A stretch of DNA of 64,000 nt from Syntrophales bacterium (GTDB lineage Bacteria; Desulfobacterota; Syntrophia; Syntrophales; PHBD01). The notes under the pieces were generated by a model. That model saw only the letters and a list, made by a program, of their open reading frames with translations. It had not been told where the DNA came from and made no database searches. The position numbers and the translations under genes are program-made. Position 1 is the first letter of the stretch. Each line of letters starts with the position of its first letter. The DNA is taken from positions 2,144,001-2,208,000 of the forward strand of contig OY764159.1 of NCBI GenBank assembly GCA_963668175.1. Direction: 5' to 3'. Below are positions 7,897-37,272 of the stretch, one piece after another.

Positions 7897-9093
7897 ATGC
7901 CGAAAGAAACAAATTACAATATCTTAATCGATAAAACGCCTGGCCGTTCTGCCGGGAACAGTCGAAAAGCAGGGGCTGCTCCATACGAAGTGAAGGTGAA
8001 AGCCGTGGAAGCGATCAGGAAGTATGCAGGTCTTTATGGATTCAATGAACATCAGACCAGCGAAGTCTTGAAAATCGTGGAACACGAATCTGGATTTAAT
8101 CCAGATGCTGCGAATCCAGACACAACTGCGTCCGGACTAGGACAGATGATGAATGACACGTTTGAGCAGTATGGGCCGCGTGGTGCGAATATTTTCGATC
8201 TGGATGCCAACGCAGAGGCAACAGTCAGATACTATCAACATTGCCTGAACAAAGCCGCAGAGAAAGGACTGACCGGAGAGAAGTTGGATACAGGTGCGTA
8301 TGCGTGTTATCATGACGGCCCGTGGAATTTTAAAGCCGGTAAGGATAAAAAAGGTGCGGATATTTATAAAAAGGTCATTAAAAAATTATCCGGTAAGCCC
8401 AAGGTTAGCAGTAACGAACGCTCCTCCAGCAACTCCGACAAGGTAGCCGAGGCGACGGAACGGGATTCCGAGCGGACAGCCGCGGCTGAGCAGCCGGACG
8501 ATGCTTATTCAACCGAAGACAGGAAGAGAAAAGACCTCGCGGGAGACGACGCCGAATCTGAAACGGCGTGGAGAGGCGGAAATTCAGATCGTCGAAGCAT
8601 ACCTAATTCATGGATAGCGGATGCCGGTAACGTGCTTTCAGATGTGTCCGGAAATGCTCTTCAAAGCGCCCTCCGCGAGGCAAGAAAGCCAACGGATGTC
8701 GAATCGGCCGCGAACACGATGACGCTTCGTGAGGCGCCGACCGATTTGCTTGCCGAACCGGGTTCTCCATTGCAGCACGTAATGGATGCGCTGGGGGTGT
8801 CGTCCGGCGATGTGCATTTAACCCCTGCGGAAGCGGACGATGAGAACGAGACACCGGACTCCTTCGATATTGTGGATAAGGGCACATCCGAAAAGATAGG
8901 CTCTTGTTTGACGACACCCGGCGGCTGCGAGATGACCGCAGGCGACCGGAAGGTCGTGATGGACCGGATAAGCGGTAATGACATTCACCTGCAAACGTAT
9001 GCCAAAAACGACGATGGAGATTTTGAGCTCGTTGGCACAACGCGAATCGGCGACAACGACGGGGTAACGGCAAGAAGGCCGTTTGCGGGTTAG
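7897..9093 (+). CDS. Lytic transglycosylase (SLT-like) domain + linker + conserved C-terminal domain (putative effector 3)
   Basis: HESGFNPDAAN, SGLGQM and AYACYHDGP SLT motifs. No signal peptide. Linker shared with 2594..3700. Shared C-terminal domain at 8767-9093. Confidence 0.87.
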   Translation: MPKETNYNILIDKTPGRSAGNSRKAGAAPYEVKVKAVEAIRKYAGLYGFNEHQTSEVLKIVEHESGFNPDAANPDTTASGLGQMMNDTFEQYGPRGANIFDLDANAEATVRYYQHCLNKAAEKGLTGEKLDTGAYACYHDGPWNFKAGKDKKGADIYKKVIKKLSGKPKVSSNERSSSNSDKVAEATERDSERTAAAEQPDDAYSTEDRKRKDLAGDDAESETAWRGGNSDRRSIPNSWIADAGNVLSDVSGNALQSALREARKPTDVESAANTMTLREAPTDLLAEPGSPLQHVMDALGVSSGDVHLTPAEADDENETPDSFDIVDKGTSEKIGSCLTTPGGCEMTAGDRKVVMDRISGNDIHLQTYAKNDDGDFELVGTTRIGDNDGVTARRPFAG

Positions 9094-13741: not shown

Positions 13742-14692
13742 TTATTTTCCGAACTTCCTTCTTGCGCGCCTCCTGCAGGGGGCAACCGCAACACCTGCCA
13801 AGCCGAAACCAAGAAGCAGCATGGTACCCGGTTCAGGAACGGGTGTCGAACTCTGCATGTTCCCAATGAATCCATGGACATTTTGTTCGGCATCTTGGTA
13901 ATATCCCACGATCTGGCCGTTGTCGTTGATGCCGGTAAGAAAGGTGCCGCCCACACCATCCGGGTTGTCAATGATCGTGCAATCCGAATCACTGCAAAGG
14001 AACCCGTGCGTGATTCCGTCTTGATAGAAATACCCGACGATTTGCATTGAATTGTTGATTCCCGTTGCGTACGTTTCGACCGCTCCCGGATATTGGACTG
14101 CCCGGACCACTGTTTTAGTCGGCCAGGAATAGATTCTGCTTATCTCCAGCAAACCGTTGTAAACCGCAATGTCGCCTTTGTTATTAATTGCATAAGCGAG
14201 TACATTGTCTTGTATGTGCCATATTTTTGCCTCGGTGGTATTGTAAAGGAAAGCATACTGGCTCAATATTCCCGTGTAATATCCGACAATGTCGCCGTTG
14301 TCGTTGATTCCGGAAGGCCTCATCGAAAAATTACCATAGTAGATCCATCTCAACTCCGTTCCGTCAGTGCTGCGAACGAAACCGTCCGTGTGGTCATTTT
14401 TTATTCCTGTACCGACAATCTGACCGCTATTATTGATGCCCGTCAAAAAGGTGTTGCCATCGCCGACCTTAACAGTCGTGTAAGTCCCTCCACTGTCTCG
14501 CACGAAACCAGAGTACCCTTCGCCCGGGACTGCAAAACTGCCGACGACCTCGCCGGAATTATTGATCCCATTTGCGTAGGTAAGAGTAGCGCCCGGAACA
14601 TCGATAGCGGTAAACGTATAGTCGGCATGAGCTACATTAAATCCTATGACTAAAAAAAGCGTTGGGAGTAATGCTGCAAAAGCCTTTTTCAT
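13742..14692 (-). CDS. PEP-CTERM surface protein with HAF-like extracellular repeats
   Basis: Signal peptide. Repeated GINNSG(E/Q)(V/I)VG motifs. C-terminal VPEPGTMLLLGFGLAGVAV plus basic tail. Confidence 0.9.
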   Translation of the reverse strand: MKKAFAALLPTLFLVIGFNVAHADYTFTAIDVPGATLTYANGINNSGEVVGSFAVPGEGYSGFVRDSGGTYTTVKVGDGNTFLTGINNSGQIVGTGIKNDHTDGFVRSTDGTELRWIYYGNFSMRPSGINDNGDIVGYYTGILSQYAFLYNTTEAKIWHIQDNVLAYAINNKGDIAVYNGLLEISRIYSWPTKTVVRAVQYPGAVETYATGINNSMQIVGYFYQDGITHGFLCSDSDCTIIDNPDGVGGTFLTGINDNGQIVGYYQDAEQNVHGFIGNMQSSTPVPEPGTMLLLGFGLAGVAVAPCRRRARRKFGK

Positions 14693-14726: not shown

Positions 14727-14861
14727 TTACTTCCTGAACTTCCTCCTCGCGCGCCCCCGTGCAGGGGGCAACCGCAACGCCTGCTAAGCCGAGGCCAAGA
14801 ATGAGCGTAGTGGTGGGTTCGGGGACAGAAGAGGGATCGACAAAAGTCCGGATTTTCTCAT
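14727..14861 (-). pseudogene. Internally deleted PEP-CTERM gene remnant
   Basis: RBS and MRKSGLLSIPLL start are joined out of frame to VPEPTTTLILGLGLAGVAVA. The ARRKFRK-stop tail is frameshifted again. Confidence 0.75.
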
Positions 14862-19869: not shown

Positions 19870-20128
19870 CGTTTTAATGTAAACATTGCTTCATCGGCTG
19901 TCAAGGCGTTTTATTGTTCATATGGAAAGTGATCACGAGAACGCGGCGTCATGCCGCACGGACGGGAATATGAACGGAAACGACACGCTGACAGGGGACA
20001 TATGCGAAACGGAATGCGGCTCATGTCGCGCCGCTGACGGCAAGACGAAGTTCGGATGCAGAGGCGTTTAGCGCTCCACACCGGATTTGAAGGTCCGCCA
20101 TGAAAGGCTGTCCGGTTCTGACGGCATT

Positions 20129-20163
20129 AAAAAAAGGCAGAGGCGCTTCCGCCCCTGCCTTCT
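20129..20163 (-). terminator. Intrinsic terminator of the PEP-CTERM gene
   Basis: AAGGCAGAGGCG...CGCCCCTGCCTT stem with a T-tract on the - strand. Confidence 0.65.
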
Positions 20164-20188
20164 CCATATTCAAAATCCGAATGGATAT

Positions 20189-20872
20189 TTATTTCCGAAA
20201 TCTCTTCCTGGCAACCGCAACGCCGGCCAGACCCAGACCGAGGAGCAGCATTGTCGCGGGCTCAGGTGCCGGTACGATGGAGATGTCATCGATATATTGG
20301 GTCAGCGAACGGCATTCCGCAGCGTCTCGTGTAATTAAGATGTCGATGGTGTGTTGCCCTGCGGACACAAAAGCGTCGAAATCCAACTCGCCGCGCTGTA
20401 CGGTTCCGGCAACGATTGAGCCGACAGAGAAGGTGTCGAGAAGTATGCCGTCCAGCAGAAGGGAAAATGTTCCGCCATCCAAATTGTAGCCGCCGTAGAG
20501 CGTGGAATTATTGACCGCCACGTTGGCATGCAGGGATATCCACCCTCCGGAAAAATTCACGGACTGCCTGATGCCGCCGCCCTCGGTTGGCATGGGGCAA
20601 TAATATCCGGGAACTGAACAGGGGGCTATGTGGTATCCCACGCTCACGGCCAGGGCCGGAGAACTGACGCCGGAGCCGGCAACGTCAAAATTTGATACGG
20701 TTGGGAGGTTTGTTCCCAGAGTGCCATTGGTTGTGGTATAGGTCGTCCACGGATCCAGATTGCCCGTCTCAAAATCCCCGTTGACGAGCGCTGCTTGTGC
20801 GGTGCCTAAAGAAAGAACAATCATCAACAGAACGAGGCCAACTTGTCTTAGAAACACATCGCGTCGATTCAT
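20189..20872 (-). CDS. PEP-CTERM surface protein
   Basis: Signal peptide. LVNGDFETG motif. C-terminal APEPATMLLLGLGLAGVAVARKRFRK. Confidence 0.9.
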   Translation of the reverse strand: MNRRDVFLRQVGLVLLMIVLSLGTAQAALVNGDFETGNLDPWTTYTTTNGTLGTNLPTVSNFDVAGSGVSSPALAVSVGYHIAPCSVPGYYCPMPTEGGGIRQSVNFSGGWISLHANVAVNNSTLYGGYNLDGGTFSLLLDGILLDTFSVGSIVAGTVQRGELDFDAFVSAGQHTIDILITRDAAECRSLTQYIDDISIVPAPEPATMLLLGLGLAGVAVARKRFRK

Positions 20873-21231
20873 AGGACCCCCCGGTTCCCCCATTATTTCG
20901 CAAGTGGTTTACTCCCCTGCTTTTGCCATATATTCCTATAAATAGCAAATATTATTCTAATATTTTTTAAAAACAATATAGATATTAAGCCCTTAATAAC
21001 CATATAACGTCACTCCACTTATCATGCCGAGGTGACGCGGAAAGGTGAGGGTAAGTATGTGTAGCCGACATCACACTCCCTGTCCCTGCTTCCCCTCCAA
21101 CTGAACAGAAGCATACCGCTTGACGCTGACTCTCCCGGCATGATCCGTCAGAGTCACTATCTGAAACGTGGAATGGATTAAATGATGAAGCGAACCGAGA
21201 CTTCAGGAAGATATCTGCATAACGCGCCGTT

Positions 21232-22614
21232 TTACAGCACCAGCTCTTCGATGAAGGCGATGAGCTGGTTGACGTTGCCGCAGACGCGGACTTCGTGGCA
21301 GTGCCGGGCGTAGGTGTAGATTTCGCTGTCGGCCGTGCCCCAGAGGTTCTCCGCCTCGGGGTTCAGCCAGATGACGCGTCGGCAACGGTCCCGCATCTCG
21401 CCCAGGATCGCGTCCTCGGGGTGCGTATAGTTCCCCCGCCCGTCGCCGACGACGATGAGCGTCGTCCTCTTCGTGAGCAGCTCCATGTACGACCGCTTGA
21501 AGTGGCGGAAGGTCTCGCCGTAATCGGTCTGCGCGTTGTAGCGGACGTCCGCGTTCTTCGTGACGATGCCGATCGCCTCTTCGATGCCGTGTTCCGCGAA
21601 GATGTCCGTCACATCCGTCAGCCTGTCGACGAAGACGAAGCTGTTCACCTTGTCGAAGCAGTCCTGGAGGGAGTAGAGGAGGTTGAGCATGAAGCGGGCC
21701 GCCGTCCAGACGGAGCTGGACACGTCGCACAGCGTGACGATGCGGCTTTTGCGCAGGGCCTTCCGGCGGTACCGGATCTCGATGGGGACGCCGGTGTACT
21801 TGGCCGCCGACCGCAGCGTCTTCTTGACGTCCAGGTTGCCCCGGTCGCGCACCGCGAAGCGGCGGCTGACGACGTTCCGGAGTTTCCTCACCAGCTTGTC
21901 GACGGCCTCCCGCATCTCCTCGACTTCCCCGCGCGTGAAGGACGAGAAGTCCTTCTCCCCCAGCTCCTTCAGGCGCTGTTCGTGGGTCTGGACGGTCCGC
22001 GTCCCGGTGTCGCTGCCCGGTTCGTACATCAGGATGGAGCGGGCGGAGGCCAGCCGTTCGTCGACGTGGGCGGCAAGCTCGCGGCGCTGCGTGGGAGCCA
22101 TGCTCAGATCGTCGCTATCCAGGAGGGCCGAGGCGGCGGAGGCGGTCCGGATGATCTGCATGAGGACGTTCATGCGGCTCGCGAGCGGCCCGAAATTGAA
22201 CCGGGCCGATGCCTCCGGGGCATCCGACTCCTGGTGGATGCGGCGCATTTCGGCGAGGAGCGGCAGCGGATTGCCCGCCACGAAGTCCACCACCGCGCCG
22301 TAGACCGGGTTGTCGTCGGGCTTCTCCCTGAGGAGCTTCGCCGCCTTCCGGATGTGCTCGGCCTGATCGGCGGCCTGCCGCATATCGCCCGCGTTCACGC
22401 GCATTTCATGGAAGAAGAGACGGTAGAGGCGGTCGAAGTGAGGAATCTCCCGGACGCTCTTGGCAAAGTTGGCGCGGAGCAGCGCCCTGAACTGCAGTTC
22501 GTCCGTCGGGTCGATCAGTTCCATCTGCCGGAAGCTGTCGAGGACCTCCGCGGTGGAGATGCGCAGGCCGGAGGCCCGGCAGCAGGAAGCGAATTGCTGG
22601 ATAAGCTTGACCAT
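21232..22614 (-). CDS. VWA domain protein (CoxE-like)
   Basis: LDVKKTLR, LCDVSSSV, TDYG, VVGDGRGN and WLNPE motifs. Downstream of a MoxR ATPase. Confidence 0.9.
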   Translation of the reverse strand: MVKLIQQFASCCRASGLRISTAEVLDSFRQMELIDPTDELQFRALLRANFAKSVREIPHFDRLYRLFFHEMRVNAGDMRQAADQAEHIRKAAKLLREKPDDNPVYGAVVDFVAGNPLPLLAEMRRIHQESDAPEASARFNFGPLASRMNVLMQIIRTASAASALLDSDDLSMAPTQRRELAAHVDERLASARSILMYEPGSDTGTRTVQTHEQRLKELGEKDFSSFTRGEVEEMREAVDKLVRKLRNVVSRRFAVRDRGNLDVKKTLRSAAKYTGVPIEIRYRRKALRKSRIVTLCDVSSSVWTAARFMLNLLYSLQDCFDKVNSFVFVDRLTDVTDIFAEHGIEEAIGIVTKNADVRYNAQTDYGETFRHFKRSYMELLTKRTTLIVVGDGRGNYTHPEDAILGEMRDRCRRVIWLNPEAENLWGTADSEIYTYARHCHEVRVCGNVNQLIAFIEELVL

Positions 22615-22660
22615 GAATCAGAGACTTTCATATGACAGGCCGCGCCCCCCGCATGGGGGG

Positions 22661-22839
22661 TGTTGAAAAACGCCCATCTGTTACTTGCCCCCTTCAGGGG
22701 GGGCTTTTGCGCGTCCCCTAAAGGGGATAAATCACCTAAAGGTGACAAGCCTTGCATCTGGACATTTTTGAACCCCCTGAAGGGGGCGAGCAACCTGCGT
22801 TCCCCCTGCATAGGGGGTTCAAAAGCGAGTTTTTCAACA
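22661..22839. mobile_element. MITE/REP-like non-autonomous element with nested short palindromes
   Basis: Perfect 11-bp terminal IR TGTTGAAAAAC / GTTTTTCAACA. No credible ORF. Five internal 12-16-bp palindromes. Confidence 0.65.
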
Positions 22840-22880
22840 AGCTGTTAAATCCCGATAGCTCCGGCGGCGCCCCCCGCCTG

Positions 22881-23789
22881 TCAGGGGACGACGCGGTCCA
22901 TGTGCTTGCGCACCTTCTCCATGTCCGCCCGGTACTTGCAGATGACGTTCAGCGTCTCCGAAACGACCTCAGGCGTCAGCTCCGCGATTTGCAGGGCCAG
23001 GAGCGACTGCGCCCAGTCCAGCGTTTCCGAGATGCTGGGGCTCTTCTTGAGATCGAGGCCGCGGATTTTGCGGATGGCGGAAACCAGCGCGGCGCAAAGC
23101 TTTGCCTCGATGCCGGGGATCTTCAGGCGGACGATGGCGATCTCCGTATCCTCGGCGGGGTAGTCGATGTAGAGGTGGACGCAGCGGCGCTTGAGGGCGT
23201 CGCTCATGTCTCGGTAGTTGTTGGACGTAAGGAGCACGAAGGGGATCTTCACGGCCTTGCGGGTGCCCAGCTCCGGGATGGACACCTGGAAGTCGCTTAA
23301 AAGCTCAAGAAGGAAGGCCTCGAACTCCGGGTCGGACTTGTCGACTTCGTCCAGAAGCAGCACCACCGGCTCCTTCGAGCTGATCGCCTGCAGGAGCGGG
23401 CGCGGCTGGATGAAGCGGTCGGAGAAGAAGGCGTCCTCCTGGGCGCCGATCTGGTCCACCGCCTCCGTCAGGGTCGCCGTGGGGGCGATGATGTCGTTGA
23501 TGCGGTCTTTCACCATCTGCGTGTAGAGGAGCTGCTTCGCGTACTCCCATTCGTAGAGGGCCTTGGCCTCGTCCAGCCCCTCGTAGCACTGGAGGCGGAT
23601 CAGCTCGCGGCCGAGGCTCCGGGCGACGGCCTTGGCCAGTTCCGTCTTGCCGACGCCCGCCGGCCCTTCGATCAGGACGGGCTTCTGCGTCGCCTGCGCC
23701 AGGAAGACGACCGTCGCGATCTCCCGCGACGGAATATAGCCCGCCTCCGCGAGCCTCTTCTCCACATCGTCGACACTCCGGTAATCCAT
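22881..23789 (-). CDS. MoxR-family AAA+ ATPase (CoxD-like)
   Basis: Walker A GPAGVGKT, IRLQCYEG, Walker B LLLDEVDK, and LTSN...SDALKRRC. Confidence 0.93.
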   Translation of the reverse strand: MDYRSVDDVEKRLAEAGYIPSREIATVVFLAQATQKPVLIEGPAGVGKTELAKAVARSLGRELIRLQCYEGLDEAKALYEWEYAKQLLYTQMVKDRINDIIAPTATLTEAVDQIGAQEDAFFSDRFIQPRPLLQAISSKEPVVLLLDEVDKSDPEFEAFLLELLSDFQVSIPELGTRKAVKIPFVLLTSNNYRDMSDALKRRCVHLYIDYPAEDTEIAIVRLKIPGIEAKLCAALVSAIRKIRGLDLKKSPSISETLDWAQSLLALQIAELTPEVVSETLNVICKYRADMEKVRKHMDRVVP

Positions 23790-24156
23790 GAATAACGTCG
23801 TCCTTTCCTTGCGATACATATCCGGCGGCACGTGCCCGGGTACAGGGCGCAAGACCGCGCCGTCGCCTGCCGCCTGAGGATACCACCGGGGCCGCCGGAT
23901 GCCCAGCAAAATCTATCTCTTGGAAAAACGGGGGGTTAACGGGGCGGACAGATGCCAATCCGGAGAAAGTGCGGGCCTCGGAGGGATATCAAAAAAACGG
24001 ACGGAAAGCGGGCGGAAACGGAAAGACGAGACCGGTTGGCGAATCATGGGCGTCGGGATAATTCCGGGGACACCACACTTAATTATTATAATAAAATAAA
24101 GTGAACCGTCGCCGTTGCCGCCCGGCCGGAAACACCCTTCCCCGGAACCCTTTCCC

Positions 24157-24837
24157 CTAACGCACGGGCTGGTTTTCAGGGCGTATCCATTGGGGGAGGA
24201 TGGATTTCTCGATCCTGACCTTCTGCAATGCGGGGTATTCGGAAAGGTACAGCTTCATATCCTCCTCGAATCTATCTTCGGCAACAACATCGTAAGTCCC
24301 CGTGGAAGCGCCGACCACCGCCTGATCGATCAGCGGTACGACTTTTCCCGCTCTTTCTTCGCTGTCGCTTTTCCTTTCCCGCAGCACGACGTCAAGATGT
24401 CCCAGGTAGATCACGGCGTTCGGTTTGATCTCCAGTTTATAATTCAGCGGAACGGAGCCGCCGCCGGTAATCGGGAAATGATCGTATGCCGCGCCGATGC
24501 TGTGAAAGGTGTACGCGCCTCCCGCAAGCTCAAAACTCAGCAGGTATTCGTTGAAGCTGTTCTCCACGCTTTTTATCCGGTAAGGAATGTCGGCCCTGTA
24601 GAAGCTGCTCCTCGACCCGTGGTCGCATCGCTCCGATTGCGGGCAGATAAGCGCGCCCATGATATCCAGCTGGTAGCCCGGCTTGTGCTGGTTCGCAATC
24701 TTGACCGAAAGCAGGGCCAGCGATTTTTTGGAGACGTCAATGTCCGTCTGGCCCTTGGTGAGCGCCATGTTGCCGCCCGCGCAACCCGCCATGACGAAGA
24801 CGGAACACAAGACGATAAGAAACCTTCGACTGATCAT
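24157..24837 (-). CDS. Hypothetical lipoprotein (repeat-flanked cassette)
   Basis: GGAGG RBS. MISRRFLIVLCSVFVMAGC lipobox. Confidence 0.82.
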   Translation of the reverse strand: MISRRFLIVLCSVFVMAGCAGGNMALTKGQTDIDVSKKSLALLSVKIANQHKPGYQLDIMGALICPQSERCDHGSRSSFYRADIPYRIKSVENSFNEYLLSFELAGGAYTFHSIGAAYDHFPITGGGSVPLNYKLEIKPNAVIYLGHLDVVLRERKSDSEERAGKVVPLIDQAVVGASTGTYDVVAEDRFEEDMKLYLSEYPALQKVRIEKSILPQWIRPENQPVR

Positions 24838-25007
24838 AACCCCTCCCGGCCAACGCCTCATCCATGATATCGGGGAATTCGTGAATTCGGGGGGCACCAC
24901 ACTCATTTAACAAAATTCCCCTGCCTGGCGGTTAATAATTAAGTATGACGTCCCCGGAATTACGACTGCCTGGCGGTTTATAATTAAGTATGGTGTCCCT
25001 GAATTGA

Positions 25008-25491
25008 CGATCTGGTCCACCGCCTCCGTCAGGGTCGCGGTGGGGGCGATGATGTCGTTGATGCGGTCCTTCACCATCTGCGTGTAGAGGAGCTGCTTGG
25101 CGTACTCCCATTCGTAGAGGGCCTTGGCCTCGTCCAGCCCCTCGTAGCACTGGAGGCGGATCAGCTCGCGGCCGAGGCTCCGGGCGACGGCCTTGGCCAG
25201 CTCCGTCTTGCCGACGCCCGCCGGCCCCTCGATCAGGACGGGCTTCTGCGTCGCCTGCGCCAGGAAGACGACCGTCGCAATCTCCCGCGAGGGGATGTAG
25301 CCCGCCTCCGTCAGCCTCTTCTCCACATCGTCGACACTCCGGTAATCCATGAATAACGTCGTCCTTTCCCTGCGATACATATCCGGCGGCACAAGCCCGG
25401 TTACAGGGCGCACAACCGCGCCGCCGCCTGCCGCCTGAGGATACCACCGGGGCCGCCGGATGCCCAGCAAAATATATCATTGGGAAAAACG
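25008..25491 (-). pseudogene. Partial duplicate of the moxR 5' end and upstream region (copy of 23447-23930), bounded by repeats
   Basis: Colinear 484-bp copy without indels. The reading frame runs into the repeat after ...EAVDQI. Confidence 0.93.
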
Positions 25492-25603
25492 TCTGAATTT
25501 GGGGGACACCACGCTCATTTATCAGAATTCCCCTGCATGGCGGTTTATAATTAAGTATGGTGTCCCCCGAATTACGTTTGCGCCTGATTGCTGTGCGGCG
25601 ATA

Positions 25604-26134
25604 TTAGTAACGGCGCCGACGTATATTAACGCAGAGCCAGCAATTATTTTGATGTTGTACCAACTCAATCTTGAAATGGGGACTTCTTCGGATGCCGAAT
25701 CTATAAGGATAGAATTTGAATTCACGTGCCATTTGGGGAAAACGAAGTTTTAGACCGTCGACATACCGAGTGACACTTGGCTTATCAAGCCACGGACCAG
25801 TTTGTGGGTGTGGATCTTTGTATACGATGACTTGCCCTTTGGAGTCTCTGTAAATCGCAGTGGCACTATCTGGAAGAGATGCTGGAAATACGTCGTAAGG
25901 GCCACAAATTCTGTGGTGGGTAGTTGATGCCCTGAAATATGGTGCATCCTCAAAGAATACCTTTGTGCCATCTTCATAAGCAGTGAAACCTTCGCCTGAT
26001 TTTGTAAGCAATGGAAGGTGCTTTTCTGTCAGTCCAAAAAGTTGTTCTTTATCGCATTCCTCCCAAAACCATGTGCGCCAGTAATCATGACCATTCCTAC
26101 TGACAACGGAGGCTTCATATGACCAAGGCATCAT
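25604..26134 (-). CDS. Hypothetical protein (AT-rich, repeat-flanked cassette)
   Basis: AAGGAG RBS. The ORF fills the interval between two repeats. Confidence 0.7.
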   Translation of the reverse strand: MMPWSYEASVVSRNGHDYWRTWFWEECDKEQLFGLTEKHLPLLTKSGEGFTAYEDGTKVFFEDAPYFRASTTHHRICGPYDVFPASLPDSATAIYRDSKGQVIVYKDPHPQTGPWLDKPSVTRYVDGLKLRFPQMAREFKFYPYRFGIRRSPHFKIELVQHQNNCWLCVNIRRRRY

Positions 26135-26305
26135 CAATCTCCTTTTCTGGAAAGTTCAAGCACTTTCCAATTAATATTACAAACAAATGGTGCAAATGAC
26201 GGAATTCGGGAATTCGGGGAACATCCATATTCATTTGTCTGAATTCCCCTGCCTGGCGGTTAATAATTAAGTATGACGTCCCCGGAATTGTGCTGTGGTT
26301 GGGAT

Positions 26306-26857
26306 TTAATAAAATCTTTTGTTCATAGCTTTCTTATAAACGTTCTCTAGATCAAACGTTACAGGATCTCTCTCCCCATCATCTGTTGAATTATCAATTA
26401 AATTGAACGCTATACCACCATTTTCAATTTCACCCAAAAAGCACAATTCTTTTTTTGAGGCTCTTCTGGCTAAGGCAAACTCTCCATGATCGCCTAAATA
26501 ATTATCCTTAAAGTCATCATCCCATTCGGGAACTGCTAGAACATAGACTTTATATTTGTTTTGCTGTGGGGATCCTATTATTAAAAGATATTTTTTATTA
26601 GTTTGCCGACTAAATACTTCTATTTTTTTATCATCATGCCATTCATATCCGTCAGGTTTTATTTCTATCCAACAACTGTAATCAGGGAGATAAAAATCAG
26701 GTAAGTACCATGTACCATCAATATCAAATCCTTCAACTTCATATTGATATTCTATTTCGAGTTCATCAAAGAACACCGCCCAGCGCGCTTCTAATCTACT
26801 ACGAAATTTGATGCCGTTATAATTTGTTTCAATAGTTTTTATCATTTTCCATCCCAA
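26306..26857 (-). CDS. Putative PD-(D/E)XK nuclease-like protein (repeat-flanked cassette)
   Basis: FRSRLEARWAVFFD...YLPDFYLP...WIEIKP motif. AT-rich. Confidence 0.8.
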   Translation of the reverse strand: MGWKMIKTIETNYNGIKFRSRLEARWAVFFDELEIEYQYEVEGFDIDGTWYLPDFYLPDYSCWIEIKPDGYEWHDDKKIEVFSRQTNKKYLLIIGSPQQNKYKVYVLAVPEWDDDFKDNYLGDHGEFALARRASKKELCFLGEIENGGIAFNLIDNSTDDGERDPVTFDLENVYKKAMNKRFY

Positions 26858-26932
26858 CGATTAATATACCAACTTGGTTTATGCGATTTCCGGAGGCAAT
26901 ATTACGTCCCTGAATTGTTCGGAATTGGCAAG

Positions 26933-27469
26933 TCATTTTTTAATAATGCATCTTTGTAGATGCTCTTGAACTTCTCTCGGAAATTCATTGGCAGCTATTG
27001 AATCATCAAATAGCCACTTAAAATAAATAACCACTATATATCGTAGATCCCACATTGAAAAAATTGAATTATCAATTTCAATGTAAATTTCTGGTTTATT
27101 ATCGAAATATGATCTCCAGTCGCCCACTATAGGCGGGTAGGTTTTCTTCACCGGTGTTTTCTCATAATTTTTTTTTCGTAGAATCATATGCTTACTACCA
27201 TTGGTTAAATCTTTAAAAGCTTTTAACAACACCTGCATTTCAGATGTAGTACGTCCTTTTTTTTGACGAGCTAATCTGGGGCGATTCTGATCTTCGTCAA
27301 TCCAGTCATCATATAAGTGCCATGCAGTCACGAAAAAATTAAAACAATCATAAGGATTGCATTCCTCGCTCAATTTTTTATCTTCATAGAGCAGCTTCAT
27401 CAACATATCGTAACTACTACTTATTCCATAATCAAAATGTGGCGTATTATTTTCTATCAAGTCATTCAT
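26933..27469 (-). CDS. Hypothetical protein, possibly HEPN-like (repeat-flanked cassette)
   Basis: FNFFVTAWHLYDDW and KDLTNGSKH, which resembles the HEPN Rx4-6H pattern. AT-rich. Confidence 0.72.
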   Translation of the reverse strand: MNDLIENNTPHFDYGISSSYDMLMKLLYEDKKLSEECNPYDCFNFFVTAWHLYDDWIDEDQNRPRLARQKKGRTTSEMQVLLKAFKDLTNGSKHMILRKKNYEKTPVKKTYPPIVGDWRSYFDNKPEIYIEIDNSIFSMWDLRYIVVIYFKWLFDDSIAANEFPREVQEHLQRCIIKK

Positions 27470-27636
27470 ATGATTTATAAATTCTATGCCATACAGAATT
27501 CGGGGGACACATACTCATTTATCTGAATTCTCCTGAATGGCGGTTAATCATTAAGTATGGACGTCCCCTGAATTGGCGCACTTTTCAGAATAAACACATC
27601 AGCAATATCATAAACGCAAGGGCTTAAATTCCGCGT

Positions 27637-27909
27637 TTACTTCACGAAGTCTCTTAGTGCCTTACCGGCTTTGAACGTAGGAACTTTCTTGGCCGCAATT
27701 TTAATTGTTTTTCCAGTCTGTGGATTTCTTCCTTCTCTGGCCTTTCGCTTTGCAACAGAGTATGTGCCGAAACCAACAATCGTCACGGCGCTATCTCTTT
27801 TCATTGCGCCTTGAATGGCCTGATGATAACAATCAATGCAGCGGCTGGCCTGGGCTTTCGTAACTCCGGCACAACCAGCCACAAATGAAACGACATCTGC
27901 TTTATTCAT
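27637..27909 (-). CDS. hup: HU-family histone-like DNA-binding protein
   Basis: MNKADVV...VGFGTYSVAKRKAREGRNPQTGKTIKIAAKKVPTFKAGKALRD. Confidence 0.92.
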   Translation of the reverse strand: MNKADVVSFVAGCAGVTKAQASRCIDCYHQAIQGAMKRDSAVTIVGFGTYSVAKRKAREGRNPQTGKTIKIAAKKVPTFKAGKALRDFVK

Positions 27910-28516
27910 TTTTGCCCCTCCCCTTTTCGCTCTGCAACTGGAATTTGAGAGCCGCGATTTCTCTATCCCGCCGATCAATCTCCGCTTTCGATTGTTCAAT
28001 TTGTGATTTCAGCAAATACACTTCTCTTTTCAAATCGTTATTGGAAGGCTTAATATAATTCACATAGGCCCACGCGGACGAAGCGACGACCGCAACAACG
28101 GATACAGTGAACGTAGCCAGCTTCCACGGTTTGGCTTTCTTCGCCTCCAATATGTCAAGCCTTTCTTTCGTTGACAGCACGCCTGTGAGCTCCCAATGAT
28201 GCCTGCATTTCACCGGCATGTTTTCGGGATCTTTTAAATAGCCTCCCAGGCAAGTCCGCTTCACAGCCTTACGTATCAGAGACGTATCGCACTCTTCGCC
28301 GTTGTCGAATTTGGCAATTTCATCTTCTATAATCTTCTGGTCCTCGCGATCCAGAGTTTCTATAGAGTGGTCTTCGACGTACAAGTAGCAATTGTTCAAG
28401 CAATTTGGCAAGAATGGCCTCCTGGTACCTTCAGGAAACTGGTTCAACGCGAACGCGAGAGATAGGAAATGCAGTGAGATGTGAAAAACTTTGAACCGAT
28501 TTATGAGGCTTGTCAA
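27902..28516 (-). CDS. Hypothetical protein with one TM helix and a C-terminal coiled coil (start uncertain)
   Basis: TM LATFTVSVVAVVASSAWAYV. Stop overlaps the HU start. Confidence 0.65.
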   Translation of the reverse strand: MTSLINRFKVFHISLHFLSLAFALNQFPEGTRRPFLPNCLNNCYLYVEDHSIETLDREDQKIIEDEIAKFDNGEECDTSLIRKAVKRTCLGGYLKDPENMPVKCRHHWELTGVLSTKERLDILEAKKAKPWKLATFTVSVVAVVASSAWAYVNYIKPSNNDLKREVYLLKSQIEQSKAEIDRRDREIAALKFQLQSEKGRGKNE

Positions 28517-28844
28517 GATGAAATATCAGTAAAATCAATAAAAAGATATGCAATCAGCCTCTAGTAATCTTGCGGGCGGGGATATGAGGGGAGGAAGAAG
28601 AAAAGAGGTTTTAAGAAACGGACATGGTGAAACATAGATCATTTATTCACGACTATTAATTGGCATCAACAAGATACTCGACGGAGGTGATTAATGACTA
28701 CAGGAAAAATCCTTGATTCGCGATGGGGTTTGCGGCTGCCGTCGGGAATGTCTTATTTCCGGCAAGGGACGCATGGTCCCGCCGGTCTTTCCCTCCCGCC
28801 GGCCGCCGGCCTGGCCCGGCGCGGTCGCCGTTCCCGGCTGCCGT

Positions 28845-30203
28845 TCAGTTCCGCATGCTGGTGACGGGGGCGGGGAGCCTGCCGCCCCGCTTGAGGAAGT
28901 CTTTCGCGGAGTAGGGATTCACCTTCATGATCGGCGCTTCCCCGAGAAGCCCGCCGAAATCGACCGACTCGCCCGCAACCTTCCCCGGGACGGGGATGAT
29001 GCGGACGGCCGTCGTCTTGTTGTTCACGATCCCTATCGCCAGTTCGTCCGCGATAATGGCGTTGATGGTCTCCGCCGGGGTGTCGCCGGGCACGGCGAAC
29101 ATGTCGAGGCCGACGGAACACACGGCGCTCAGCGATTCGAGCTTGTCCAGGCCGAGGGAGCCCCGCCTGACCGCGTCGATCATGTTCCGGTCTTCGCTTA
29201 CGGGGATGAACGTGCCGCTTAAGCCGCCCACGTTCCCGCTCGCCATCGCGCCGCCCTTCTTCACGGCGTCCATCAGGAGGGCGACCGCCAGGGTCGTGCC
29301 GTGCGCCCCCGTCGATTCGATGCCGAAGGCCTCGACGATGCCGGCCACCGAATCCCCGGCGGCGGTCGTCGGCGCGAGGGAGATGTCCACGATCCCGAAG
29401 GGGACGTCCATGTTCCGCGCGAGTTCCCGGCCGACAAGCTCCCCGCTTCTCGTGATCTTGAAGACGGTCCTTTTGATGACCTCGGCAAGCTCCGTCAGGT
29501 CGCACGACCGGTTCTTCTCCACGACGCTCCGGACGACGCCCGGCCCGCTGATGCCGACGTTGAGCGACATGTCCGGCTCGCCCATGCCGTGATACGCGCC
29601 CGCCATGAAGGGGTTGTCCTCCGGGGCGTTCACGAAGACGACGAACTTCGCGCAGCCGACGGCGTCCTTCGTGAGGGAGGCCGTCCGCTTGAGCATCGGG
29701 CCGATGAGGTTCACCGCATCCAGGTTCATTCCCGCCGTGTTCGCGCCCACGTTGAGAAACGAGCACACCCTTTCCGTGGCCGCGAGGACCTCGGGCAGGG
29801 ATTCGATCAGCACTTTTTCGGAACGGGTGATGCCCTTGTGCACCAGCGCGCCGAAGCCGCCGATGAAGTCGATTCCCGCGTCCGCCGCCGCACGGTCAAG
29901 GGCCTTCGCCATGGCCACGTACTTCTCCGCCGTGGCGTGCGTCTCCATGACGATGCTGACAGGGGTGATGGAAACCCTCTTGTTGACGACGGGGATGCCG
30001 TACTTCGCTTCGAGTTTCTTCGCCTCGTCCACGAGCTTCTTCGCGTTCGCGCGGATCTTGCCGTAGACCTTGTCCGTGAAGGCCCCGAAGTCGGAATCGA
30101 TGCAGTCCTTGAGATTGATGCCGAGCGTCGTCGTCCTGATATCGAGGTTCTGATACAGGATCATGCTGGCCGTTTCGAATATTTCTTCGACCGATAGGGC
30201 CAT
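28845..30203 (-). CDS. UPF0210 / DUF711 (PFL-like) family protein
   Basis: LDIRTTTLGINL, GIPVVNKRVSITP, NPFMAGAYHG and CSVGLDM motifs. Paired with an ACT protein. Confidence 0.93.
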   Translation of the reverse strand: MALSVEEIFETASMILYQNLDIRTTTLGINLKDCIDSDFGAFTDKVYGKIRANAKKLVDEAKKLEAKYGIPVVNKRVSITPVSIVMETHATAEKYVAMAKALDRAAADAGIDFIGGFGALVHKGITRSEKVLIESLPEVLAATERVCSFLNVGANTAGMNLDAVNLIGPMLKRTASLTKDAVGCAKFVVFVNAPEDNPFMAGAYHGMGEPDMSLNVGISGPGVVRSVVEKNRSCDLTELAEVIKRTVFKITRSGELVGRELARNMDVPFGIVDISLAPTTAAGDSVAGIVEAFGIESTGAHGTTLAVALLMDAVKKGGAMASGNVGGLSGTFIPVSEDRNMIDAVRRGSLGLDKLESLSAVCSVGLDMFAVPGDTPAETINAIIADELAIGIVNNKTTAVRIIPVPGKVAGESVDFGGLLGEAPIMKVNPYSAKDFLKRGGRLPAPVTSMRN

Positions 30204-30206
30204 CGC

Positions 30207-30485
30207 CTACACCCTGTGCATCGTCTTGAAGATATTCTCGTGCTGGATCTGGACGAGGACCCCGAGTTCGCCGCCGATCCTTTCCAGGCCCGTCCTGACG
30301 CTCTCCAGCGGGATCGTGGAATCCTTCATATCCACGAGCATCGCCATGACGAAGTAGGACTCCATGATCTTTTGATTGATATCCAGGATGTTGATGTTGG
30401 ACTCGTAGAGAAAGGTGGACACCTTGGCCACGATCCCCTTCTTGTCTTCCCCGATGACCGTTACGATGAGATGTTCCTTGTCCAT
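30207..30485 (-). CDS. ACT domain protein (UPF0237)
   Basis: VTVIGEDKKGIVAKVS...NILDINQ...QHENIFKTMHRV. Confidence 0.92.
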   Translation of the reverse strand: MDKEHLIVTVIGEDKKGIVAKVSTFLYESNINILDINQKIMESYFVMAMLVDMKDSTIPLESVRTGLERIGGELGVLVQIQHENIFKTMHRV

Positions 30486-30646
30486 GATTCCGCCTGTGGC
30501 TTTCCGGATATGAGAGATGCGCCCCGTATGAACGCCATGCCTTCTTCCTTATCCGCTCAACGGGAAACCTACATAAATCGTTTTGAAATGTCTACCGCTT
30601 CTTCCGGAGGAGGGCATGGAGCAGCCGTGCCTTCCCGCCGTTCCCT

Positions 30647-31234
30647 TCATTCCTTGCCTGCGCCGGCCCCTTCCGTTTGCGCCGCGTCGGCGGCCTGTTT
30701 CCGGACATGGCCGGGGTACCAACTGGTGAAGGCGGCCGTTGCGATCATCAGGGTGTAGCTGACGAGCTCGTAACCCAGTTCGGTCAGGAGGAATTTCTCC
30801 ATCTTGCCCCAGGCCAGGAGCGCGTTGATCGTGAAGGTGAGGCCCCAGGCCGAGGTCAGGATCGTGTTGGTCCTGACGAAGCTCGGGCTCGTCCATAGGG
30901 ACGGATCGACGTGTTCCCTGGCGTAATCCATCGTGAACGGCTTGCCGATGACGACGGTCAGCCAGGTGCTGACGGCGAGAATCCCGGAAGCCGCGATACC
31001 CATATGTTTAACGGCCCACATGCTTTCGAAGGCGACCACGGCGACGGAGGCGCACGAAAAGAAGACCAGCCCCACCCATAAAATGATGCCCCTGTGCAGT
31101 TTGGCCACGCCCATGCCGATGCTCAGGACCAGCGCGACGATCAATCCCAGCTTGAGGCGAAACAGGCTGCCGTGGGCGATCACCAGAAAGGCGAGCCACG
31201 GCGCGAACGCCAGGATCAGCTTCAAGAATAACAT
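30647..31234 (-). CDS. Integral membrane protein
   Basis: About 6 TM helices. KPFTMDYARE...FVRTNTILTSAWG motif. Confidence 0.8.
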   Translation of the reverse strand: MLFLKLILAFAPWLAFLVIAHGSLFRLKLGLIVALVLSIGMGVAKLHRGIILWVGLVFFSCASVAVVAFESMWAVKHMGIAASGILAVSTWLTVVIGKPFTMDYAREHVDPSLWTSPSFVRTNTILTSAWGLTFTINALLAWGKMEKFLLTELGYELVSYTLMIATAAFTSWYPGHVRKQAADAAQTEGAGAGKE

Positions 31235-31315
31235 ATTCCACTCCTTAGTTTGAGGTATCCTGCTTCATATCTTTCCCGGCGCCTTCAGGCCTGCCCGCCG
31301 GCAAACCGCCCGAGG

Positions 31316-31912
31316 TCATCCCAGGAACAGCAGCGAGACGACTTTGGGGTGGCCCTCCACGGGAAAGGTCAGTTCGATGCCGGCCCGGGCGCAGGTGGCC
31401 ACGGCGTTGATGCCGATGGCCTCCACGGAGCCTCGCCGTTTCGACGGGAACCGGCACTCGGTATAGTCGTCCACGCACTCCTTGCACCAGGGGCAGGAAC
31501 CGACGCCGAAGGCCAGGCTGAAGGGCAGGCCGAGCCCGAAGGCCGCCCGCTCCAGTTCCAGAAGTTTATCGTACAGGACGCGTTTCCACGAATACCATTC
31601 CTGCCAGAACTTCTCCACCTCGGGGTCCTTCTTGGCCGCCGAAAGGCTCATGAGACAGCGGCTCTTTTCAAGGCCGATGCTCGCGGGGCACGAGAACGTC
31701 ATGAGAAGCGCCTGGTCGTACTCCGCCGCGAATTCCTCCGCCCGGGGGGCCTTGGGCGGGCATGTGAGCTGCCTGCCGTATTCGCCGCAGCCGAACTGGC
31801 ACAAGAGGTTTGCCCGTTTCTCGATGACGATGTCGTGTTTTGTGTCGATGAGGACGGCGTCGTTGGCCCCGCGCTCCCTGGCGGCGGCGATGAGCGAATC
31901 GAACTTACCCAT
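31316..31912 (-). CDS. DUF2284-like Cys-rich metal-binding protein
   Basis: CQFGCGEYG...CPP, GSCPWCKEC...CRFP and SVEAIGIN motifs. Confidence 0.85.
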   Translation of the reverse strand: MGKFDSLIAAARERGANDAVLIDTKHDIVIEKRANLLCQFGCGEYGRQLTCPPKAPRAEEFAAEYDQALLMTFSCPASIGLEKSRCLMSLSAAKKDPEVEKFWQEWYSWKRVLYDKLLELERAAFGLGLPFSLAFGVGSCPWCKECVDDYTECRFPSKRRGSVEAIGINAVATCARAGIELTFPVEGHPKVVSLLFLG

Positions 31913-32224
31913 ACGTGTCCCTCCTGTCGTGTCCGGATGTTCAATGGTTGTTCCCCCGGCGCGATACCGCCGCCGTAACATCGCCGCATGCGACATCGAA
32001 GCTGTTTTTCAGCCTGCATCTTATACCTGCCTTTTTTATCATAGGTGCCGATAAATAAGAAGACTATCTTTCGCGGCGCCGGTCGATTTGAAGATCAAAG
32101 ACCGGATTTGCAGGGTTGGCTTTCGGCGGTGCGGGCCGCCGGAGGGAGGCGGGCGGCCCGGGCATCTTCTTCGCCGGAAAACGCAGGCGGCGGGCTGAGC
32201 GGGGATATCACACGGCGTTGGACG

Positions 32225-34917: not shown

Positions 34918-35952
34918 CTATTTGACGCCGGAGACGCAGCAATCGCTTCTATTGGCCGGGGGCACGGAATTCTTAAGCCAGCAGCGGGCGGAAGGCCCCT
35001 GGACGCCGGGCTTGACGTATGTCCAGGCCCTGCAGTTGCGTTCCTCCGCGCAGGCCGCCATGCATAATTCCGGGTTGGCCCTCTGGAGGTCGAAGTTCCT
35101 GAAGTCCATTCCGGGGCGGTCCGTGTCGAATTCCATATCCGTGCGGGATACCTGTCGATTCTTGACGCCGGAGACGCAGCAATCGCTTCTATTGGCCGGG
35201 GGCACGGAATTCTTAAGCCAGCAGCGGGCGGAAGGCCCCTGGACGCCGGGCTTGACGTATGTCCAGGCCCTGCAGTTGCGTTCCTCCGCGCAGGCCGCCA
35301 TGCATAATTCCGGGTTGGCCCTCTGGAGGTCGAAGTTCCTGAAGTCCATTCCGGGGCGGTCCGTGTCGAATTCCATATCCGTGCGGGACACCTGTCGATT
35401 CTTGACGCCGGAGACGCAGCAATCGCTTCTTGTGGCCGGGGGCACGGAATTCTTAAGCCAGCAGCGGGCGGAAGGCCCCTGGACGCCGGGCTTGACGTAT
35501 GTCCAGGCCTTGCAGTTGCGTTCCTCCGCGCAGGCCGCCATGCACAATTCCGGGTTGGCCCTTTGGAGATCGAAGTTCCTGAAGTCCATTCCGGGGCGGT
35601 CCGTGTCGAATTCCATATCCGTGCGGGATACCTGTCGATTCTTGACGCCGGAGACGCAGCAATCGCTTCTTGTGGCTGAGGGCACGGAATTCTTAAGCCA
35701 GCATCGGGCGGAAGGTCCCTGGACGCCGGGCTTGACGTATGTCCAGGCCTTGCAGTTGCGTTCCTCCGCGCAGGCCGCCATGCACAATTCCGGGTTGGCC
35801 CTTTGGAGATCGAAGTTCCTGAAGTCCATTCCGGGGCGGTCCGTGTCGTACTCCATGTCGCTCGATCTTCTATCGGCTGACGCCCCTGGACAGGATAGGC
35901 TCAACAACAATAAGATCAGAATGACTACCTTGAGCGTAAATATCTTCTTCAT
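34918..35952 (-). CDS. Secreted protein with four tandem PAN/Apple domains
   Basis: Signal peptide. 80-aa unit DTDRPGMDFRNF...CMAAC....C.AWTYVKPG...CWLK...CCVSGVK, four copies. Confidence 0.92.
   Translation of the reverse strand: MKKIFTLKVVILILLLLSLSCPGASADRRSSDMEYDTDRPGMDFRNFDLQRANPELCMAACAEERNCKAWTYVKPGVQGPSARCWLKNSVPSATRSDCCVSGVKNRQVSRTDMEFDTDRPGMDFRNFDLQRANPELCMAACAEERNCKAWTYVKPGVQGPSARCWLKNSVPPATRSDCCVSGVKNRQVSRTDMEFDTDRPGMDFRNFDLQRANPELCMAACAEERNCRAWTYVKPGVQGPSARCWLKNSVPPANRSDCCVSGVKNRQVSRTDMEFDTDRPGMDFRNFDLQRANPELCMAACAEERNCRAWTYVKPGVQGPSARCWLKNSVPPANRSDCCVSGVK
34922..35857. repeat. 240-bp intragenic tandem repeat x4
   Basis: Near-identical blocks with 240-bp period starting at 34922, 35162, 35402 and 35642. 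Confidence 0.95.
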
Positions 35953-36327
35953 CCCTTCCTCCTTTGCTTGTCCGGTTTCGCATTGGCCCGTTGTTTCGCC
36001 CGGTTTTATTAAAGTTTCTCCCAACGGCGTTTGTACCGAATGAAATCGACCCGCCCGCGAATCGTGTACCATATTTGGAGCAAGGATTCTATGTTTACCT
36101 TATGGCGGGCTTATCGATAATCGGCTGAAATGCTTGCGTCTGACTGAAATTGCGGTTCATCGACTATGGGAGGAATACGGGAGAAAGGCCCCTGTTGGCT
36201 TCAGCTACGAATCGTTGAAATACATGACAAAATTGCAGCGTAGATTACAGCTTGAAAGCGCGGGGAAGACAAGCATGCAGAGCCAAAGATGATCCTGCCT
36301 TCTTGTCTTCAAAATTCTAAATGGATA

Positions 36328-37272
36328 TTATTTACGAAACTTATGCCTTGCCGACACCACAATCCCCAAGCCGAGGCCGAGAAGCAATACGGTCGCAGGT
36401 TCCGGGACGGGGGCGGTGCTGAGACCGCTTTCGCTTGTAAATATGATATTCGGGTCCAAAGAAGTCGTAAGTACGGTAAAAGGATCGGTGGCGTCTACAA
36501 ATCCTCCGTTGACGACTGAGCCGATACCAGTAAGAGAGGTAAAAGTGAGACCGGCATAAGCTGTAAAGAGTGCATCGTAGGAGAAGTAAACAGTGTCGCC
36601 TTCAATTTTAATGGTCACAGGTATGTAGGTTGTGCCCAGAAGCGTCGTTCCGTTAAAGTGTTCCAGGCTTGCAGATGCCTCAACGAATCCGGGACGGCCT
36701 TCTTCTGACAGGCGGAAATAAAAACTGTAACTCTCCGAGCCGCTGTTAAATTGATAGAGGGCACCGATTGTGGCTCCACTCATCAGGCCTAAGGAGCCGT
36801 GCTGCCGTAGACTTACTGAAACGGGAACCCCCTGTGACGGCAGCGATGTCGCACAACTCAGCGGGGAAGTGCAACTCCATGTATCCTGATACCAGGAACC
36901 TGATACCCCCTGTCTCACATAGTCGGGTTCCCTGTAAACCGTGCTGATGGCCAAACCGGCCTGGATAATAGTGTAAGACTTGTCGGTCGCAGCATCGTAA
37001 TAGATGCCGTTTTGCACGTAAGACTTTGCATAATTATCGGTGTTGAGCGTGTATGAACTGCTCGCTGTGTCATGCTCATCTAAGTACGTCTGGGACGATC
37101 CAACAAGGTAGCTGTGACTGCTGCCGTTGCCGGCCGTCGCCGTTACCGGCAATACGAGAAACGCAATATGCGTCGGCAAGAGTGTGAGCATGATGAGGAT
37201 TGATGAGAAGAATTTTACCCGCCATTTGCCGCGACTATCCATTAAGATCGATAACTCGGTTTTTCTTGTCAT
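36328..37272 (-). CDS. PEP-CTERM surface protein
   Basis: N-terminal hydrophobic segment. C-terminal VPEPATVLLLGLGLGIVVSARHKFRK. Confidence 0.88.
   Translation of the reverse strand: MTRKTELSILMDSRGKWRVKFFSSILIMLTLLPTHIAFLVLPVTATAGNGSSHSYLVGSSQTYLDEHDTASSSYTLNTDNYAKSYVQNGIYYDAATDKSYTIIQAGLAISTVYREPDYVRQGVSGSWYQDTWSCTSPLSCATSLPSQGVPVSVSLRQHGSLGLMSGATIGALYQFNSGSESYSFYFRLSEEGRPGFVEASASLEHFNGTTLLGTTYIPVTIKIEGDTVYFSYDALFTAYAGLTFTSLTGIGSVVNGGFVDATDPFTVLTTSLDPNIIFTSESGLSTAPVPEPATVLLLGLGLGIVVSARHKFRK

Follow-up and report, generated by a model that had tools for sequence, protein, structure and literature searches.

A diverged copy of the moxR promoter region and gene start between palindromic repeats in a Syntrophales genome, a possible scar of recombination between sister lineages

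Homology-facilitated illegitimate recombination (HFIR) and the single crossover of circularised DNA are both treated in PMC3240628. Displaced pieces of an old gene that are kept beside a newly acquired allele are described for type VI secretion system (T6SS) and Rhs loci in sections of PMC5361080, whose authors contrast these orphan arrays with integrons. A locus that can be set beside such systems lies in a window of 64,000 nucleotides on contig OY764159.1 of a Syntrophales bacterium ("the window" being this whole stretch), where a diverged copy of the start of moxR, together with the DNA upstream of it, lies between two palindromic repeats not far from the intact gene. We give about an even chance to the reading that this fragment is a recombination scar left by exchange between two closely related Smithellaceae-like lineages, and not a cassette of a dedicated system.

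The fragment (H') and the resident segment that it copies (H) form one ungapped, same-strand alignment with 462 of 484 positions identical (BLASTN of both regions), and the bases directly outside this alignment differ on both sides. A preliminary description of the locus had reported this 484-bp copy as the moxR upstream region plus the first 114 codons, and it proves to reach from 141 nt before the ATG to 343 nt into the coding sequence (114 codons and one base); GGACCAGATCG, given in that description, is the reverse complement of 25008-25018. The two copies are in direct orientation with a start-to-start spacing of 1561 bp, in the layout H, 1077 bp, H', and the whole gene continues from H only. 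No frameshift, stop or indel interrupts the fragment, which retains the promoter region, the start codon and the Walker A motif (GPAGVGKT in resident and fragment alike) within an open reading frame (ORF) totalling 147 aa. The only database record of this ORF is the window's own 168-aa protein P0121, and the peptide tail encoded by the repeats matched nothing but the window's own protein among six candidates in a search of 5.8 billion proteins. A promoter and terminator scan gave nothing useful at either moxR copy.

The copies differ at 22 sites in a per-site list, half of them (11) in the 141 nt upstream, where divergence is 0.082, and 11 in the coding part. As counted in the preliminary description, ten of the 11 coding differences are synonymous; the remaining one, at codon 14, sets Ala (GCG) in the resident against Thr (ACG) in the fragment. 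With 83.2 synonymous and 258.8 non-synonymous sites, the synonymous rate (dS) is 0.131, the non-synonymous rate (dN) 0.0039 and dN/dS 0.03. At least ten synonymous changes in 11 would arise with a probability of 6e-6 to 4e-5 (according to the transition bias assumed) if no change had been under constraint, and of 6e-4 to 2e-3 if the resident were perfectly constrained and decay took place in the fragment alone; the latter figure rules out neutral decay of a local duplicate. Nineteen moxR genes of the Smithella group, 69-84% identical at the nucleotide level, served as outgroups for polarisation. The fragment is ancestral and the resident derived both at nt 40 in codon 14 (A in 17 of 19 outgroups) and at nt 252 (C in 19 of 19), while the other nine coding sites were uninformative because outgroups of only 69-84% identity are too distant. 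Thr14 is found in 6 of 14 aligned database homologues, and Ala14 in a single one, P0001.

The ancestral bases in the fragment therefore place the single amino-acid change on the resident lineage, rather than in decay of the fragment. Together with the ten synonymous differences in 11, they argue that both copies diverged as working alleles in separate lineages, as is expected of the two copies in an HFIR or Campbell-type scar. Given this substitution pattern and the intact reading frame, the fragment looks like a frozen piece of a working allele and not like a pseudogene decayed in place. The earlier proposal that the copy diverged as a functional gene is upheld to this extent, though the copy of foreign origin, which it took to be the fragment, may be either of the two.

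The organism is Syntrophales/Smithellaceae-like, the named MoxR homologues coming from Smithella, Smithellaceae and Syntrophaceae bins, and window GC is about 0.6. The resident protein is an AAA+ ATPase with a Walker A motif and a VWA-domain partner, the features by which the MoxR family is recognised, and has 8000 homologues, the best of which (99% and 95% identity) are named MoxR ATPase. Pairing with the VWA gene is kept in the 23 closest loci; among 13 neighbouring proteins, the VWA protein alone recurs near moxR in relatives. The closest database relative, P0001, is an independent record that is 99% identical over 302 aa and has Ala14 like the resident. Its upstream translation, of which 20 residues are available, differs from the resident at 1 of 20 and from the fragment at 4 of 20. 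Since P0001 carries the resident type, this type would also be a population allele, and both 5' types look like population alleles on these comparisons; the 95% relative is P0002. DNA upstream of moxR could not be aligned with that of relatives, and the region upstream of the gene may be variable in them too. One related bin (L006) has an element of about 100 nt three times (2501-2604, 4378-4476 and 6480-6583; 81-87% identical, one inverted) in a low-GC stretch 3.4-7.4 kb upstream of its moxR. The repeats near moxR in L006 and in a second relative, L020, were considered as kin of those in the window and rejected, since they belong to unrelated families.

The repeats of the window lie upstream of the resident gene, within a lower-GC island (0.33-0.56, against about 0.6 for the host) of small minus-strand genes that extends from about 24060 to 28700. 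They are imperfect palindromes of about 80 nt, present as four full copies (R1 to R4), from which an nhmmer profile was built, and two partial ones, the single inverted arm R0 and the right half R1b. Pairwise identity among the full copies is 84-89% by BLASTN, and ungapped identity to R1 is 64-86% in the repeat search. Their arms, of about 27-30 nt and 81-93% complementary, form terminal inverted repeats of the kind that defines miniature inverted-repeat transposable elements (MITEs), and the consensus hairpin has 27 pairs. R2 as single-stranded DNA has a folding z of -4.6; one of the 27 pairs is changed on both sides, in four sequences that are too few for covariation to be judged. R0 is 90-93% complementary to the right arms of R1, R2 and R3. 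R1b agrees with the right half of R1 at 40 of 44 positions and with that of R2 at 41 of 44, figures on which an orthologous relation of R1b to the right half of R2 was dropped. All six copies fall within 24060-27580 (3.5 kb), and the profile found no further copy in the other 60 kb of the window; a weak match at 1055-1126 (nhmmer E 0.054), before a gene at 1114, may be due to chance. The ORFs between the repeats are all on the minus strand with a repeat 9-64 nt past the stop codon, as in arrays of units in the same orientation, and on these features the layout resembles both a sedentary cassette array and a MITE cluster.

At the left junction the last AATT of R1b ends at 25005 and is followed by GA and then by the copy; at the right junction the copy ends at 25491 and is followed by TC and then by R2, from 25494. 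The coincidence of junctions and repeat ends, which the preliminary description had named beforehand as a point on which it could fail, thus holds to within 2 bp on each side, whereas real genes lie 16-72 nt from the repeats. R1 and R2 share a longer palindrome, CGT...GAATTY...GAATTACG, with CGT as left and ACG as right flank. The right flank reads AATTACGA in R1 and AATTGACGA in R1b, and moxR reads CCGATC, such that the first bases of the copy, CGA (25008-25010), can be read as repeat flank or as moxR; ACG (25489-25491) likewise fits both the left flank of R2 and the sequence upstream of moxR. The CGA overlap of 3 nt fits short microhomology at the joint and is too short for a statistical test. 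Two to three nucleotides of ambiguous origin at both joints would be typical of illegitimate joining, and a short site-specific core would fit them too.

From the duplication, the purifying-selection pattern between the alleles, the structure of the junctions and the lack of attC or integrase features, all of which are observed, we infer two parental arrangements, a direction of transfer and a role of the palindrome as break point. In one parent lineage, the DNA upstream of moxR would have consisted of the 129-bp spacer and R0, followed by the lipoprotein gene and by R1/R1b, as the island's native edge there. In the other, R2 and its low-GC genes would have abutted position -141 of moxR, which would be the native island edge in that lineage. 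The two could have been combined by linear DNA with a homology anchor on one side and an illegitimate join on the other, the process of HFIR with which de Vries & Wackernagel 2002 and Prudhomme et al. 2002 are reportedly associated. Alternatively, a circle of 1561 bp could have integrated by a single crossover within the 484-bp homology (Campbell-type). Either route would leave the homologous segment twice in direct orientation around the insert (H, 1077 bp, H'), with one copy reaching the whole gene, and the window contains such a direct duplication around inserted DNA, one copy of which runs into the gene. The single new non-homologous joint would be that at 25007-25010, in the CGA overlap of repeat flank and moxR codon 114. 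As this joint falls in a 3-nt overlap at the flank of a repeat, its position hints that the long palindrome, by breaking or pairing, determined the site. DNA is known to break and slip at long palindromes, which would account for a joint at the flank of a repeat. The lipoprotein-like gene has 204 homologues, the named ones being mostly from Syntrophales, with Smithellaceae and one Nitrospirota record besides; by its GC (0.56) and this distribution, with the best non-self match at 77%, it is probably the kind of cargo expected from a sister strain. Either copy, the resident or the fragment, may be the immigrant; P0001 carries the resident type.

Several observations weigh against a scar of exchange between lineages. 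On both sides only 2 bp separate the fragment from the outer end of a repeat arm, and a joint within 3 bp of an arm end has a chance of about 2% by a rough estimate, which suggests active repeat ends. R2 abutting position -141 in one lineage must be assumed, the truncated R1b directly after R1 is left unexplained, and a genome with either parental arrangement was not found: the closest moxR loci among 185,579 species genomes have only 91% amino-acid identity and share nothing upstream. A near-identical lipoprotein gene is absent from the protein database (best 77%) despite the moxR relative at 99%. Short-read contigs often break at repeats of this kind, and such a contig break could explain the missing gene. 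Divergence is also uneven along the segment, with differences at 3 of 192 sites in codons 51-114 and at 19 of 292 elsewhere (Fisher P 0.013), a pattern outside the predictions of the simple model that could have come from a crossover within H or from gene conversion at a later time.

The proximity of both joints to repeat ends is also the first point in favour of another explanation, along the lines of the preliminary description and in our view unlikely. The repeats may be recombination sites of a cassette- or transposon-type system encoded elsewhere, and the moxR 5' region may have been cut from a sister lineage through secondary sites beside the array and inserted between repeats as a nascent cassette. 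The cluster is array-like: all copies in the 64 kb, four full and two partial, are gathered within 3.5 kb; its ORFs lie on one strand, each followed by a repeat, and three of them have a GC of 0.33-0.44 against about 0.6 for the host. Arm ends meet unrelated DNA at three junctions (R0/129 bp, R2/-141 and R1b/codon 114), as if cut there, and the ACG that forms the right flank of R1 and R2 recurs at both junctions of the fragment. Pairs of MITEs moreover mobilise the DNA between them, as described for the elements called TIMEs in PMC4133298.

The features that such a system should leave are lacking in several respects. In integrons the two ends of an attC palindrome each carry a consensus box, R'' (RYYYAAC) at one and R' (GTTRRRY) at the other. 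A regular-expression search with this consensus found no RYYYAAC...GTTRRRY pair at a spacing of 40-160 nt on either strand of 24000-28700, and the single isolated R-box detected lies inside R1. No tyrosine recombinase was recognised among 120 ORFs (17 + 35 + 68) across the 64 kb, none of which had a Phage_integrase-type match in Pfam. The fragment itself lacks a complete site and has only the half-repeat R1b (profile positions 42-84 of 85), and its spacer register of 2 bp differs from the 16-72 nt of real genes. As an integron cassette the fragment therefore fails, and the cassette slot of the preliminary description finds no support, given the missing attC boxes and tyrosine recombinase, the half-repeat and the junction overlaps of at most 3 nt. 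Its suggestion that some machinery mobilises DNA adjacent to the array fares no better, as no enzyme for it was found in the 120 ORFs and the other slots showed no further piece of a host gene, c2 being full-length within its family and c3 and c4 judged by family or look-alike matches only.

The sole mobile-element enzyme is an IS3-type rve transposase at 4609-5457, some 19 kb away. The left end of its element is weakly similar to 4 of 10 repeat arms and the right end to none (P 0.27-0.98 over 10 arms), and the element was rejected as the source of the repeats on these grounds. Neither dispersed copies nor a transposase with matching ends, as would be expected of a MITE, was found within the window. 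A search for target-site duplications gave only AATT, itself part of the palindrome, and nothing at R4; one 4-nt match at R2, ACGT, is expected by chance given the 156 offsets tried. The IS3-family insertion sequence (IS) occupies 4600-5923, with orfA (5454-5897) and the rve orfB (4609-5457) both on the minus strand, terminal inverted repeats of about 26 nt (4600-4625 and 5898-5923) and possibly ATT on both sides.

Nor does the repeat family match any collection searched. Rfam over 20000-32000 at E up to 1 gave four chance-level matches, none of them on the repeats; the exact 22-nt repeat core had no match in the 185,579 species genomes; the nhmmer profile found nothing below E 4.8 in 80 moxR loci of relatives; and BLASTN found no match in plasmid or phage records. 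The family thus appears undescribed in these collections. A bolder version of the same idea, to which we attach little weight, is that Smithellaceae possess a cassette system, as yet undescribed and distinct from integrons, with the GAATTC-ended palindromes as its sites; the recombinase would be encoded elsewhere on the 4.57 Mb chromosome and would cut at the ACG flank. In that case the moxR piece would show a cassette at the moment of its origin, as host DNA beside the array that left one strain through secondary sites and was re-inserted in another.

Duplication in place within a single lineage seems similarly improbable. It would have been followed by replacement of the resident 5' part with a sister allele, or by purifying selection on the truncated 147-aa product. 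Bacteria commonly replace alleles by homologous recombination, the single amino-acid change arose on the resident side, and the fragment has kept everything from promoter region and start codon to Walker A in an open frame. A tandem duplication would, however, give H-V-H-V, and the second V (1077 bp) is absent, so that one would have to add either a further, precise deletion or a pair of illegitimate joints. The truncated form with its repeat-encoded tail has no homologue (one own protein among the six candidates), and the N-terminal third of MoxR without Walker B would have no known function. An assembly artefact, by which the moxR upstream versions of two co-existing strains were strung into one contig, is very improbable: the related records are all metagenome-assembled genomes, the copies are at strain-level divergence (4.5%) and multi-copy repeats lie at the joints, but at the joint 25007/25008 a repeat end meets mid-coding sequence with at most 3 bases in common, where a graph misjoin would depend on a shared k-mer; this joint must be present in some actual molecule, and the record of the window's own proteins on a contig of 4,567,304 nt suggests long reads spanning the 1.5 kb.

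The features of the region are collected in Table 1. The lipoprotein-like gene had no Pfam, PHROG, NCBIfam or PADLOC match; c2 had no Pfam, PHROG, NCBIfam, PADLOC or Atlas match, while 58 cluster representatives match it, 15 of them at E <1e-30, the best covering query residues 3-170 of 177. The product of c3 aligns to phage nuclease families over its N-terminal half only, with a 72% DNA match to a Vibrio phage gene. Since c3 and c4 share one repeat-bounded unit, the pair may act together in defence or addiction. When the complete island was compared with plasmids and phages by BLASTN, matches were limited to the moxR piece and part of c3.

Table 1. Coordinates of the features around the duplicated moxR segment, numbered from the first nucleotide of the window
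Feature	Position	Strand	Basis or remark
VWA CoxE-like partner gene, next after moxR	21232-22614	-	Pfam VWA_CoxE
Resident moxR, intact MoxR-family AAA+ ATPase, 302 aa	22881..23789	-	Pfam AAA_5 5e-13, AAA 2e-11; ATG at 23789
H, source copy: moxR codons 1-114 and 141 nt upstream	23447..23930	-	BLASTN alignment with 25008-25491
Unique spacer, 129 bp, upstream of resident copy	23931..24059	.	Host-like GC 0.60; single copy in window
R0, single inverted arm, without centre or second arm	24060..24092	-	nhmmer profile positions 54-84, E 1.9e-5
Lipoprotein-like gene, 226 aa, signal peptide with Cys, GC 0.56	24157..24837	-	ORF
R1, full repeat, right flank ACGA	24882..24965	+	Repeat search; nhmmer E 3e-28
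Fragment ORF: MoxR part of 114 aa with Walker A motif GPAGVGKT, continued for 33 aa across R1b and R1 up to a stop	24910..25350	-	Translation
R1b, right half only (centre and right arm), abuts fragment codon 114	24966..25007	+	nhmmer profile 42-84, E 3e-9
H', fragment: diverged copy of moxR 5' region, 141 nt upstream and 114 codons	25008..25491	-	BLASTN, per-site list
R2, full repeat, 2 bp from upstream end of fragment	25494..25577	+	Repeat search; nhmmer E 1e-27
c2, complete small gene, 177 aa, GC 0.44	25604..26137	-	ORF and family alignment
R3, full repeat	26210..26293	+	Repeat search; nhmmer E 3e-27
c3, PD-(D/E)XK nuclease-like gene, GC 0.33	26306..26857	-	PHROG 21138 2e-28; PHROG 9019 (Holliday junction resolvase) 6e-13
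c4, 178 aa, GC 0.33	26933..27469	-	ORF; Atlas look-alikes are unnamed clusters only
R4, full repeat, last in window	27494..27580	+	Repeat search; nhmmer E 2e-25
HU/IHF-type DNA-binding protein gene, GC 0.46, far side of repeat cluster	27637..27909	-	Pfam Bac_DNA_binding 2e-29; PHROG 379
204-aa ORF	27902-28516	-	ORF within island

Repeated sequences of other kinds occur elsewhere in the window. Three 300-nt copies (569-868, 3377-3676 and 8767-9066; 70-84% identical) are the 3' ends of LysM/SLT-domain genes, and 1113-2674 holds three adjacent paralogues with similar 82-nt starts, two of which share 300 nt at 94%; this part of the window looks paralogue-rich and variable in GC. A repeated gene 3' end at 13769-13840, 14755-14826, 20198-20269 and 36368-36408 encodes PEP-CTERM signals, and there are four PEP-CTERM proteins in the window. 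Four tandem repeats of 240 nt (34922-35941, 74-99% identical) lie within a minus-strand gene at 34918-36072 that encodes four PAN_4 domains.

If the scar reading is true, the locus would offer a clean natural example of an exchange between sister strains that left a displaced promoter and gene start beside the working gene, with long palindromic repeats marking the breakpoints; the lineage is a syntrophic one, little studied and represented mainly by metagenome bins. It would help to read strain-level recombination in such genomes, though it would not be surprising. Were the repeats the sites of a dedicated system, the import would be larger. Research on integrons has yet to explain how a cassette first arises from ordinary chromosomal DNA, and a piece of host gene that begins and ends at repeat termini would put this problem within reach of a test.

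Among the systems compared here, the integron arrays and the clusters of attC sites lacking an integrase (CALINs, PMC4889954) share with this locus a single orientation in which each unit is followed by an imperfect palindrome of 80-90 nt, a cargo unlike the host in composition, a degree of repeat identity (74-88%) like that of sedentary arrays, and breakpoints at the outer end of the palindrome. In contrast to those arrays, no AAC/GTT R-boxes or integrase were found in the searches made here, the palindromes end in GAATTC-like sequence, one terminal copy consists of an inverted arm alone, and the fragment has no complete site. In a CALIN the integron integrase is absent by definition. Like the MITEs and TIMEs of PMC4133298, the repeats are short, bounded by inverted repeats, without a transposase of their own and flanking genomic DNA with junctions exactly at their ends. 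The TIMEs are described there as 262 bp long, with 38-bp Tn3-type ends and target duplications of 5-6 bp, whereas here there is no clear duplication and no matching transposase, the copies are clustered, and the fragment lies between one and a half elements.

The T6SS effector-immunity and Rhs orphan pieces (PMC5361080) come nearer in that a new allele is inserted with its cargo while the older piece is kept alongside, in an array-like locus without an integrase. In the loci described there the 5' part serves as the conserved anchor, and 3' ends with immunity genes make up the orphans; here, what is retained of a housekeeping-type ATPase gene is its promoter and 5' third, and toxin systems play no part. 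Integration by HFIR or by a Campbell-type crossover, in the account of PMC3240628, has in common with this locus a homologous anchor and one non-homologous joint of short overlap, the anchor sequence on both sides of the insert, and a donor that is a close relative. It differs in that a single genome is at hand here, with the joint at the flank of a long palindrome and with donor and recipient arrangements that we infer. By analogy with these cases the moxR fragment may well, in what we judge an evenly balanced case, work like a homology-facilitated or Campbell-type integration scar.

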